Below, piece after piece: positions 34,946 through 38,901 of a DNA stretch of 64,000 bases; position 1 is the stretch's first letter; every line of letters starts with the position of its first letter. Made by a program: the position numbers and the translations under genes. The notes below the pieces were generated by a model that was given only the letters and a program-made list of their open reading frames with translations, made no database searches and was not told where the DNA came from. The DNA is from Podarcis bocagei (lineage: Eukaryota), in the NCBI GenBank assembly GCA_964188305.1, contig OZ076888.1, one strand, 5' to 3'.

Positions 34946-35974
34946 ATGGAAGGGGAGGGAACAGCTGCAGTCACCTGCAATTCCTGCGCAATGTTTGCCA
35001 TCTTGCCAAAGGTTGCAGGCAGCTTCACCTGCAGCAATTGCATGTTGATTGCCCTTTTAAAAGACAAAGTCCAGCAACTGGAGGAACGTGTAGCTACGCT
35101 CCAAAGAATTAGAGAGCTGGAGCTCTTCTTGGAAGCAACAGAGCACACCGTCCCCACCAAGGAGGAGACAGGGGACTCCCCTGAGAAGGAGGCTAGTTCA
35201 TCAACACAGGAGCCAGATATATGGAGAAACGTGACTCAAAGAAGTAGGAGGCCCAGGGTTCACTCTGATTGTTTAGAAATACACAATCGCTTTGAGGTCC
35301 TCTCCCCTAGCATGGAAGACGAAGAGCAGACTCCATTTGAGGATCTCTCCCTCATTACAGTCGATCAGGTATATGAAGACGAGCAGCAAAGTCAGTCCTC
35401 AGGGAATGTGCAGGCGACCTTGGAACGGACAGCTCACGGAAGAACCCCGACCAAACCCAAGAGGAGGCGTGTAGTGGTGATAGGGGATTCCCTACTGAGG
35501 GGAACAGAAGCAGTGATCTGTGGGCCTGACAAGATGTCTCGGGAAGTGTGCTGTCTCCCCGGGGCTAAGATCCAAGATGTAACTGAACGACTGCAAGGAA
35601 TCATAAAACCCACTGACAAATACCCCTTCCTCTTGGTTCATGTGGGAACCAATGACACTGCAAGCAATAGCCTCCAGAAGATCAAAAGAGACTACGAGGC
35701 TCTCGGCAGGAAATTGAAGCAACTAAATGCACAAATTGTCATCTCGTCTGTCCTCCCAGTTGAACGACGTGGCCCAGGGAGAGAGGGGAAAATAGTGGAA
35801 GTGAACAGCTGGCTTCGCAAATGGTGTAAACAGGAACGGTTTGGATTCTTAGATCACGGACTGCAGTTTCTTGAAGATGGACTTCTGGCAAGTGATGGGC
35901 TGCACCTCACAACGGTTGGGAGGAATGTTTTTGCCAAAAATCTCAGAAACCTCATCAGGAGGGCTTTAAACTGA
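34946..35974 (+). CDS. CR1 ORF1p: CxxC-CxxC zinc finger, coiled coil, SGNH/GDSL esterase-like domain
   Basis: CNSC...[37 protein letters not shown] and DGLH blocks. ATG at 34946 is in strong Kozak context (aagATGg); alternative ATG at 34901. Confidence 0.92.
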
Positions 35975-35979
35975 CTAAT

Positions 35980-38901
35980 GTGGGGGAGGGAGACAGTGCT
36001 CCTGAAGGTAGGAGTCTATCAATTAATGAAGATGATCATCCAAATGTCATAGACCAAATGGAGCAAACAGCACGCGGACCTACTGGTGGGAGGAAAAAAT
36101 CCTTAAATAAGAGACACGGGGGAATGATTAATGGACTTCAATGTCTGTACACTAATGCGCAAAGCATGGGAAATAAACAAGATGAGCTTGAGCTCTTGGT
36201 ACAGCAAACTAAATATGACATAATAGGCATCACTGAAACCTGGTGGGATAAGTCCCACGATTGGAATGTAATAATGGGGGGATACAATCTATTTCAGAGA
36301 AACAGACCAGACAAGAAAGGAGGAGGAGTGGCGTTATATGTCAGGGATGTGTATACCTGTGAAGAGATCCAAGATTTAGAACCTCAAAGCCAATGTGAGA
36401 GCATTTGGGTCAAAATTAATGGAGAGAAGAATAACAGAGACCTCATTGTGGGAGTTTACTATAGATCCCCAAGCCAAACGGAGGACATAGATGATGCCTT
36501 CCTGGAACAGATGGCCAAGCATGCAAAAGGAAGGGAGATAGTAGTAATGGGGGACTTCAACTACCCGGATATTTGTTGGACGTCAAACTCAGCCAAGAGC
36601 ATAAGGTCAAACAGATTCCTCACTGGCCTTGCAGACAACTTCATTGTCCAGAAAGTGGGAGAAGCAACAAGAGGAACAGCCATTTTAGATCTGGTCCTAA
36701 CCAATGTTGATGACCTGGTTAGTGGGGTAGAAGTGGAAGGATCATTAGGCACGAGTGATCATGCTCTTCTGAAGTTTACTATACAGCGGAAAGGAGCAGC
36801 CAAGCATACTAGGACTCAATTTCTTGACTTTAAGAAAGCCGACTTCATAAAACTTAGGGAAGTGCTGGGTGAGATCCCATGGACAGCAATACTAAAAGGA
36901 AAGGGAGTTCATGATGGCTGGGAGTTTGTTAAGAGGGAGATAGTAAAAGCACAACGTCAGGCAATACCAATGAGACGGAAACATGGAAGGTGCCTAAAGA
37001 AGCCAGGGTGGCTATCTAAAGAACTTTTAACTGAATTAAGATTAAAAAAGGATGTGTACAAAAAATGGAAAAGGGGGGAAACCACCAAAGAGGAATTCAA
37101 ACAAATAGCCAGCACGTGTAGACACAAAGTCAGAAAAGCTAAAGCACAGAATGAACTCAGGCTTGCTAGAGAGGTTAAAAGCAACAAAAAAGGCTTTTAT
37201 GGGTATGTTCGTAGCAAAAGGAAGAACAAAGAAACAGTGGGGTCACTCAGAGGAGAAGATGGTGAAATGCAAACAGGGGACACAGAAAGGGCTGAACTCC
37301 TCAATGCCTTCTTTGCCTCAGTCTTCTCCGATAAAGAAAACAATGCCCGACCTGAAGAATTTGGAGCAAATGATTCAGCAGAGGAAACACAGCCCAGAAT
37401 AACTAAGGAGACAGTACAAGAATATTTGGCTTGTTTAGATGTATTCAAGTCTCCAGGGCCAGATGAACTGCATCCAAGAGTATTAAAAGAACTGGCAGAT
37501 GTGATCTCAGAACCACTGGCAGTCATCTTTGAGAATTCCTGGAGAACAGGCGAAGTCCTGGCAGACTGGAGGAGGGCAAATGTTGTCCCTATTTTCAAAA
37601 AGGGGAAAAGAGAGGACCCAAATAATTACCGCCCAGTCAGTCTGACATCAATAGCAGGGAAGATTCTGGAGCAGATCATTAAGCAAACAGTCTGTGAGCA
37701 CCTAGAAAGGAATGCTGTGATCACCAATAGTCAGCATGGATTTCTGAAAAATAAGTCATGTCAGACTAACCTGATCTCATTTTTTGACAGAATTACAAGC
37801 CTGGTAGATGAAGGGAACTCAGTGGATATAGCCTACCTTGATTTCAGTAAGGCATTTGACAAGGTGCCCCATGATATTCTTGTAAAGAAGCTGGTAAAAT
37901 GCGGTCTTGACTATGCTACCACTCAGTGGATTTGTAACTGGCTGACTGACCGAACCCAAAGGGTGCTCATCAATGGTTCCTCTTCATCCTGGAGAAGAGT
38001 GACTACTGGGGTGCCACAGGGTTCTGTCTTGGGCCCGGTCTTATTTAACATCTTTATCAACGACTTGGATGATGGACTCAAGGGCATCCTGATCAAATTT
38101 GCAGATGACACCAAACTGGGAGGGGTGGCTAACACCCCAGAGGACAGGATCACACTTCAAAACGACCTTGACAGATTAGAGAACTGGGCAAAAACAAACA
38201 AAATGAATTTTAACAGGGAGAAATGTAAAGTATTGCACTTGGGCAAAAAAAATGAGAGGCACAAATACAAGATGGGGGACACCTGGCTTGAGAGCAGTAC
38301 ATGTGAAAAGGATCTAGGAGTCTTGGTTGACCACAAACTTGACATGAGCCAACAGTGTGACGCGGCAGCTAAAAAAGCCAATGCAATACTGGGCTGCATC
38401 AATAGGAGTATAGCATCTAGATCAAGGGAAGTAATAGTGCCACTGTATTCTGCTCTGGTCAGACCACACCTGGAGTACTGTGTCCAGTTCTGGGCACCAC
38501 AATTCAAGAAGGACACTGACAAACTGGAACGTGTCCAGAGGAGGGCAACCAAAATGGTCAAAGGCCTGGAAACGATGCCTTATGAGGAACGGCTAAGGGA
38601 GCTGGGCATGTTTAGCCTGGAGAAGAGGAGGTTAAGGGGTGATATGATAGCCATGTTCAAATATATAAAAGGATGTCACATAGAGGAGGGAGAAAGGTTG
38701 TTTTCTGCTGCTCCAGAGAAGCGGACACGGAGCAATGGATCCAAACTACAAGAAAGAAGATTCCACCTAAACATTAGGAAGAACTTCCTGACAGTAAGAG
38801 CTGTTCGACAGTGGAATTTGCTGCCAAGGAGTGTGGTGGAGTCTCCTACTTTGGAGGTCTTTAAGCAGAGGCTTGACAACCATATGTCAGGAGTGCTCTG
38901 A
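35980..38901 (+). CDS. CR1 ORF2p: APE endonuclease plus reverse transcriptase
   Basis: EN motifs YTNAQS, GITETW, GDFN, SDH; RT motifs [34 protein letters not shown]; no stops over 973 codons; true start uncertain. Confidence 0.96.

Follow-up and report, generated by a model that had tools for sequence, protein, structure and literature searches.

Our analysis of a 64,000-nucleotide stretch of Podarcis bocagei DNA (contig OZ076888.1 of assembly GCA_964188305.1; hereafter the window) points to programmed -1 ribosomal frameshifting at the junction between the two open reading frames (ORFs) of a CR1 long interspersed nuclear element (LINE). This mechanism, deduced from sequence comparison, very probably yields a fusion of the ORF1 esterase with the endonuclease (EN) and the reverse transcriptase (RT) of ORF2. 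The element is a full-length young CR1 of a lacertid family (family A), delimited at 34424..38996 from its ORFs, its Pfam domains and its genome copies; all window features given below lie on the (+) strand. The end of ORF1 reads GCT TTA AAC TGA, which places the slippery heptamer T_TTA_AAC (35965..35971) in X_XXY_YYZ phase and the stop codon TGA (35972..35974) directly behind it. The ORF2 frame, which comprises an overlap, a linker, an APE-type EN and the RT according to the ORF listing and Pfam, lies one base back (-1) from the ORF1 frame and is open through the heptamer from 35896 to 38901. A preliminary description of this DNA had proposed the same arrangement, and both the letters and phase of its heptamer and the extent of its ORF2 frame agree with our reading and with the ORF listing. 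The length of about 1318 amino acids that it gave for the fusion protein is recovered when translation starts at the ATG at 34946, and the product would have 1333 amino acids from the ATG at 34901.

The junction was found throughout the young family in the same genome (1,499 first-look candidates, the best 40 of which are ~100% identical). The sequence TTTAAACTGA was present in all 60 young-family loci that were fetched, a set that includes one or two repeats of the window copy, and the -1 frame was open up to the EN motif in 57 of them. The combination of heptamer and -1 frame is a property of the family and not an indel of the window copy. Genome-wide, the pattern TTTAAACTRA-N7-GGGGG gave 2,288 matches compared to 20 for a reversed control. 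An older lizard family (family B; own-genome loci L136-L188, 82-91% identical to the query copy, 342 first-look candidates) shows the same layout, TTTAAAC TAG N7 GGGGG, with the exact heptamer in 17 of 28 decayed copies; it was first found by pattern and then sampled through its linker only. A distant ORF1 used as a query on this genome returned only the young family. As selection is unreadable from young copies, the test was drawn from distant relatives.

Conservation of the heptamer and of the ORF2 phase

Metagenome contigs were scanned with two peptide patterns from the middle of the esterase, leaving the junction unused, and 75 loci were obtained. Forty-three of these had no match to the C-terminal query, four were cut at or before the ORF1 end, one carried foreign sequence there and three belonged to another type without the heptamer, so that 24 loci with a CR1-type ORF1 end remained. 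The heptamer was TTTAAAC in 20 of the 24 and GTTAAAC, TTTAAAT, TTTACGA and TATAAAC in one each; a G_UU(A) site is used by equine arteritis virus (PMC5009743). A stop codon stood immediately behind the heptamer in 21/24 (TAG in 17 and TGA in 4). In loci of shifted length, a loose motif close to where ORF1 should end served to place the junction.

Twenty-one of the metagenome loci and two lizard sequences were then aligned by codon, three frameshifted loci being left out. DNA identity among the 23 sequences ranges from 32 to 86%, with 8 clusters at 70%, and L088, L090, L095 and L098 lie, in the esterase tree, within a clade outside all named vertebrate proteins. The terminal Leu codon was TTA in 22/22 and the Asn codon AAC in 21/22, with a T before the TTA in 22/23 sequences, across Ala, Ser, Cys, Thr, His, Tyr and Phe codons. 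In the background, TTA accounts for 11% of Leu codons, AAC for 43% of Asn codons and T for 24% of third positions, which puts the three choices jointly at ~1.2%; in five other conserved Leu columns, the commonest codon reached only 33-56%. The alignment and the 24-locus counts bear out that the heptamer is conserved at synonymous positions in related CR1s, and the linkers described below that the -1 phase is kept, the points on which the preliminary description had made its proposal depend. The junction feature exists and is strongly constrained at the nucleotide level.

These data also speak to the idea that ORF1p simply needs a terminal Leu-Asn (LN) and that the codons are coincidental. LN is indeed invariant in vertebrate-type ORF1 proteins. 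Codon choice, however, is fixed relative to the background and the preceding T is kept across seven different amino acids. In addition, the match to the solved ZfL2-1 esterase stops short of the LN, at profile position 325 of 329, and sister proteins swap LN for GN or KN. Contradicted as it is by the synonymous-site data, an origin in protein constraint or chance is hardly credible.

Published consensus sequences show the same junction. A search for the heptamer in Supplementary Table 2 of PMC13343379, where cells hold at most 400 letters, gave 23 matches, and 18 of these were judged by eye to lie at the ORF1 end, in a set that is ascertained by the heptamer itself. The labels of these 18 rows were read as alligator, crocodile, bearded dragon, bullfrog, coelacanth, bowfin, elephant shark, catshark, dogfish, sawfish and stingray, with one teleost Crack element also among them. 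Their stop codons are TAG, TAA or TGA, TAA being found in shark and alligator consensus rows.

The position of ORF2 relative to the heptamer is kept as well. The EN lies in the -1 frame in 9/9 loci whose frame stays open for 200 codons or more beyond the EN Asn, and the linkers of these long-ORF2 loci (117-270 nt) contain no stop in the -1 frame compared to 18 and 49 in the other two, over 483 codons. Stops in the -1 frame between heptamer and EN, which the preliminary description had named as evidence against its proposal if present in intact relatives, were thus not seen in the nine loci. Both ends of the linker were present in 20 loci, of which 16 were in -1 phase and the remaining four were visibly decayed. 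In the window, the linker from shift site to EN (35971..36132) has 0 stops in the -1 frame, 3 in the 0 frame and 8 in the +1 frame. Upstream, 12 of 27 junctions have the -1 frame closed one to three codons ahead of the heptamer.

The EN Asn, part of a YTNA motif (36154..36156), precedes the MGNK methionine (36166), which is widely shared; register of this Asn with Asn14 of the L1 EN, deduced from range ends, is likely. Asn14 of the L1 EN has an active-site, catalytic role. An AlphaFold model of the CR1 EN (predicted local distance difference test score 81) placed residues 1-221 on residues 4-238 of the L1 EN structure 1VYB, with a Z of 21.2, a root-mean-square deviation of 3.0 and 210 aligned residues. 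Because the model superposes over this whole range, the strand and the Asn ahead of MGNK belong to the EN fold. A single-sequence search of the PDB with the EN gave no match, whereas profile and fold searches did. In Anolis (514 members), Pelodiscus (221) and Alligator, annotated ORF2s start at MGNK, within the EN, and other database ORF2s start at AUGs 1 to >70 codons upstream of the EN motif; such starts reflect gene callers and are indirect evidence.

C-terminal ends of ORF1 proteins

The DGxH motif was recognizable in 82 of 120 listed ORF1 homologues, whose sources include turtles, squamates, birds, frogs and rays. Seventy-three of the 82 end in LN, nearly always exactly 26 residues from the motif. 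Once the results of a profile search were included, 120 proteins had their terminus at a distance of 20-45 residues from the motif, and 96 of them end in LN, 6 in QGN and 1 in SKN. The 44 new distant representatives comprise 23 with LN, 6 with GN and 15 with other endings. The residue preceding LN is one with pyrimidine-ending codons only in 14 proteins and one with purine-ending codons only in 3, and the residue preceding GN is Gln in 6/6 (Fisher p 0.0008, with rows that are not independent). Since UUA, GGA and AAA encode Leu, Gly and Lys, the LN, QGN and SKN ends fit the heptamers U_UUA_AAC, G_GGA_AAC and A_AAA_AAC, which are named among the most shift-prone ones (PMC5009743). We infer from these protein ends that the QGN and SKN families carry G_GGA_AAC and A_AAA_AAC codons. 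Proteins ending in FLN, QGN and SKN are close relatives in the esterase tree. The pattern GGGAAACTRR-N7-GGGGG gave 60 matches in the P. bocagei genome and 27 in the control, and none of the 29 inspected was a CR1 junction.

No ORF1 relatives were found in viral, genome and plasmid collections. Two CR1-type ORF1s (P0051 and P0252) are listed under the source names Klebsiella SGNH hydrolase and "prefoldin subunit 5", misleading names that probably result from contamination or mis-annotation.

A linear G-run behind the stop codon

The preliminary description regarded the signal as canonical, with a pseudoknot or hairpin as stimulator. The heptamer half of that view stands; the place of the second half is taken by a linear, unstructured GGGGG that a 10-nt spacer separates from the heptamer. 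The pairings that had been named, GGGAG with CTCCT (stem 1) and AGAC with GTCT (stem 2), are present as letters in the window family, as would be expected if -1 frameshifting operated with a local structure as its stimulator. The 99 nt behind the heptamer, however, fold worse than shuffles (z +1.05; 176/200 shuffles are as good), with an empty centroid, and pair probabilities reach a maximum of 0.39. Pseudoknots lie outside the models of the folding programs, so each pair of the proposed one was examined by itself. Of 26 other junctions, not one retains the full set of five stem 1 pairs or of four stem 2 pairs at unchanged offsets. The z-scores of single sequences are centered on 0, only L063 and L096 falling below -2, and RNAalifold returned 0 pairs on 21 sequences. 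Stem 1 would also start 12 nt after the heptamer, compared to the usual 5-9 nt (PMC7618472), and neither a stem-loop nor a pseudoknot was found at that viral distance in the window fold, in the relatives or by RNAalifold. The pairings are weak and their stems unkept in relatives, and a local pseudoknot or hairpin is a very unlikely stimulator.

The candidate linear stimulator is the GGGGG run at 35982..35986, 10 nt after the heptamer and 7 nt after the stop. In the relatives, G occupies 86-100% of sequences at each of the positions +11 to +15 after the heptamer compared to 39-74% in the spacer, and GGGGG is exact in 16/22. The Gly codon within the run is GGG in 21/22 against a background of 28%, and the codon preceding this Gly ends in G in 22/24, across many residues. 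The G-run is a nucleotide-level feature.

Two other roles for the G-run were considered and rejected. An intramolecular G-quadruplex does not suit the divergent loci, which have a single G tract. A long-range partner was rejected as a general stimulator, the upstream tract being absent in divergent loci; in amniote-type loci, the G-run often pairs best 630-700 nt upstream, with a tract that encodes a Pro-rich stretch of ORF1.

A 16-bp complementarity links an ORF1 stretch (35297-35313) with the region of the G-run (35978-35995) in the window, ~670 nt apart (-25 kcal/mol). C-rich tracts like 35297-35313 occur in bird-like loci and are missing from divergent loci.

Transcripts across the junction

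The two frames could also be joined at the RNA level, by a splice, by slippage of the polymerase or by a subgenomic transcript for ORF2, with the motif serving as a splice or processing signal. The sequence TTTAAACTAG looks like a branch point with an acceptor, and runs of G are known elements of splicing. The AG is, however, missing from the TGA and TAA families. Three raw RNA runs of a related species (651-797 reads; listing thresholds of 3 reads and 3%) covered the junction continuously with ~40-50 reads, and no splice joint, heptamer indel or start pile-up was listed there in any of them. Splicing, slippage and subgenomic RNA are weakly excluded by these runs because ~40% of the reads continue into unrelated sequence, so that many come from passive transcripts. 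The splice-site reading was rejected on the TGA and TAA families together with the RNA runs, and RNA-level joining as a whole appears highly improbable.

Frameshifting or reinitiation

Termination-reinitiation in the manner of L1 or SART1 would have ribosomes stop at the end of ORF1 and resume at an ORF2 codon close by, AUG or not; the heptamer would then owe its preservation to something else, for instance a help in termination or reinitiation. Several observations weigh against frameshifting, and those on start codons would suit such a restart. Reinitiation is the established route for L1 and SART1 (PMC2881922, PMC3708506), and L1 ORF2 initiation has been described as AUG-independent (PMC5009743). 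In the window, in-frame AUGs are present ahead of the EN at 36058..36060, 84 nt behind the stop, and at 36124..36126, as the preliminary description had pointed out, and they are kept in 60 and 58 of the 60 young copies, respectively. At least one in-frame AUG precedes the EN in 6 of the 9 long-ORF2 loci. An in-frame AUG stands 2 nt behind the stop in the bird-like loci L061, L063, L066, L068 and L097 (5/24, FKLxM) and likewise in L113 and L071; one catshark consensus has an in-frame UAAUG, and CUG overlaps UGA in the window copy. Regarding the shift signal itself, the classical 3' structure is absent, so frameshift efficiency could be low. The G-run is displaced in L098, and among the 18 published rows it is found at the exact spacing in 6, at another spacing in 8 and not at all in 4, making it absent or differently spaced in 12 of the 18, which are gappy consensuses. 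The lineages compared share ancestry, so their counts are not independent. Lastly, the 15 other endings among the 44 new distant representatives are neither LN nor GN, and DNA of the QGN- and SKN-ending families was not found in viral contigs, genome contigs or the P. bocagei genome.

The start codons of the relatives are, however, difficult to reconcile with a restart. The position of the first window AUG is not conserved, and an AUG is found anywhere from 1 to >70 codons ahead of the EN motif or is missing. L090, L095 and L150 have no AUG from the heptamer to the EN Asn, nor in the open frame upstream, and L090 encodes a 963-amino-acid ORF2 with EN and RT. The older family B has no fixed AUG ahead of the EN. 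At the position of the second window AUG its copies read ACA in 11, ATG in 8, AGG in 4 and ACG in 2 of 28; the ancestor likely had ACG there, which would have decayed as a CpG. A conserved overlapping or adjacent stop-start codon is absent in the window and variable in relatives: the codon 2 nt behind the stop is also GTG, TCG, TGG, GCA or CTT, and the CUG turns into CUA in the TAG and TAA families. Four out-of-frame AUGs lie ahead of the AUG at 36058. UGGGA is the upstream motif of reinitiation of the termination upstream ribosome-binding site (TURBS) type; a TURBS-like UGGGA was seen 30-90 nt upstream in 8/27 junctions (at -55 in the window), mostly within the DG codons of the esterase. Reinitiation also leaves an in-phase shift heptamer fixed at synonymous sites unexplained, and we consider it unlikely.

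The frameshift to a fusion protein, as first proposed, has passed the comparative tests, and it is the stimulator claimed for it that failed. In the favored model, a minority of ribosomes would slip by -1 at the heptamer, with tRNA-Leu and tRNA-Asn re-pairing on UUU AAA, and most would stop and release ORF1p. The pause could come from the stop codon, the G-run or both. The slip may occur before the stop or while the ribosome is paused at it, and the junction peptide would be the same either way. Lying 7 nt behind the stop, the G-run could influence a ribosome that pauses while the stop occupies its A site, and we favor a role as a linear binding site for a protein (ORF1p or a host protein that binds G-runs) or as a contact for the ribosome, not as the arm of a stem. 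The predicted fusion of ~1,320-1,330 amino acids would run from zinc finger through esterase, linker and EN to RT. It would set a low ratio of ORF2p to ORF1p and tie EN and RT to multimers of ORF1p on their own RNA. Pfam revealed neither a protease nor a 2A domain in ORF2, and the fusion would therefore probably stay joined. The broader proposal is that esterase CR1s have maintained a Gag-Pol-like RT fusion for >450 million years through a new class of -1 shift signal that combines the heptamer, an immediate stop and an unstructured G5 at a 10-nt spacer read by a protein or by the ribosome; we put this forward tentatively, as a serious possibility.

Relation to known systems

Coronaviruses (the 1a/1b junction of infectious bronchitis virus and SARS-CoV-2) and retroviral gag-pro-pol genes use the same heptamer class in the same phase as CR1 (PMC5009743, PMC7618472). 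In both the viral systems and CR1, a structural ORF lies upstream and a polymerase ORF follows in the -1 frame. Unlike these viruses, CR1 is an element without long terminal repeats (non-LTR), has no conserved pseudoknot or stem-loop at 5-9 nt and no protease domain found in ORF2, and places a stop directly behind the heptamer. The CR1 junction would work like a viral gag-pol shift site minus its defining RNA structure. A likeness for the stimulator is the nsp2 site in the virus that causes porcine reproductive and respiratory syndrome, where CCCANCUCC, bound by nsp1-beta/PCBP, is also a short, unstructured and conserved motif at 10-nt spacing (PMC7618472). CR1 shares with this arterivirus type a conserved unstructured linear motif, its GGGGG at +11 to +15 of the heptamer. 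The shift site differs, however, and the CR1 motif is a G-run instead of a C-rich sequence, with a role suggested by analogy.

Frameshifting would not be without precedent among non-LTR elements, since the Dictyostelium TRE5-A and TRE3-A, which are also APE-RT LINEs, are stated to require a -1 frameshift for ORF2 (PMC5911963); these elements are amoebozoan and have another ORF1. Human L1 and silkworm SART1 resemble CR1 in having a bicistronic LINE RNA, and their ORF2 translation depends on ORF1 translation (PMC2881922). In contrast to what is proposed for CR1, they make separate proteins by reinitiation (through UAAUG in SART1), with no fusion. The canonical vertebrate CR1 with an esterase ORF1 (PMC13343379; ZfL2-1 esterase, PMC3905857) is of the same element type and has the same domains as the window element.

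No report of CR1 frameshifting was found in the literature searched; CR1 descriptions from 1997-2003 lie outside that search and may mention the overlap. The word "frameshift" is absent from the available main texts of PMC13343379, PMC3905857, PMC4120745, PMC3894237, PMC3708506 and PMC2881922 and appears only in an unrelated sense in those of PMC6609765, PMC4255032, PMC11835228 and PMC5006619. CR1 is not mentioned in the available text of PMC5009743. LINE ORF2 translation is treated as reinitiation or as unresolved (PMC2881922, PMC3894237, PMC3708506), and two of these texts describe it as an open question (PMC3894237, PMC3708506). CR1 is the dominant retrotransposon group in most vertebrates (PMC13343379). 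If our model is correct, CR1 would provide a retrovirus-like answer to a question for which the accepted answers are forms of reinitiation. The CR1 ORF2p would have to be redefined, many database entries beginning inside the endonuclease, and engineered CR1s would need an intact junction. The fusion would also place the esterase on the integration machinery, and the structure-free G5 would be one of the rare linear frameshift stimulators of cellular origin.

Organization of the element and neighboring sequences

ORF1 (34901..35974; first ATG at 34901, alternative at 34946) lies in an open frame listed at 34853-35974 and encodes a zinc finger, a coiled coil and an SGNH esterase, ending in RRALN before the stop. 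The translation contains a CX2C-X14-CX2C motif (34976..35041) that we take to be the CR1 zinc finger. The esterase was identified as PF13472 and matched the ZfL2-1 esterase structure 4C1B at E 1e-40, and the RT domain (37600..38250) was identified as PF00078 at E 5e-35. The element ends without poly(A) in a (TCTATGAT)4.8 tail (38959..38996), an octamer microsatellite of the kind that presumably marks CR1. With its esterase ORF1, its ORF2 carrying APE and then RT, and this octamer tail, the window element is an esterase-type CR1 LINE. Esterase trees place its ORF1 among squamate, turtle and bird proteins, and this ORF1 is 95% identical to a Podarcis muralis protein. The 5' untranslated region (34424..34767) consists of 2.2 copies of a 156-bp tandem monomer also seen in other copies of the element; the monomers contain an internal (TG)n tract and their copy number varies among insertions.

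Directly behind the CR1 tail, at 38974-41571 (+), lies an 865-codon open frame with an RT domain, which we take from its motifs to be a 5'-truncated L1-type ORF2. A comparison of the CR1 EN with this neighboring L1 fragment gave no match. Elsewhere in the genome, the members of a small non-coding repeat family (L209-L214) share a stretch GGGGAAACTAGGCCT...GGGGG and have no ORF1 or ORF2 homology.

The elements at loci L131 (~4010-4030), L129 (~740-760) and L111 (~2945-2955) carry an esterase but lack the heptamer. In L131, the two ORFs share one frame and are separated by one TGA followed by CTG; the frame is open to the EN, with a Met just before the EN motif. This arrangement makes it possible that stop readthrough, in an L2-like sister group, provides a second route to an esterase-EN-RT fusion.

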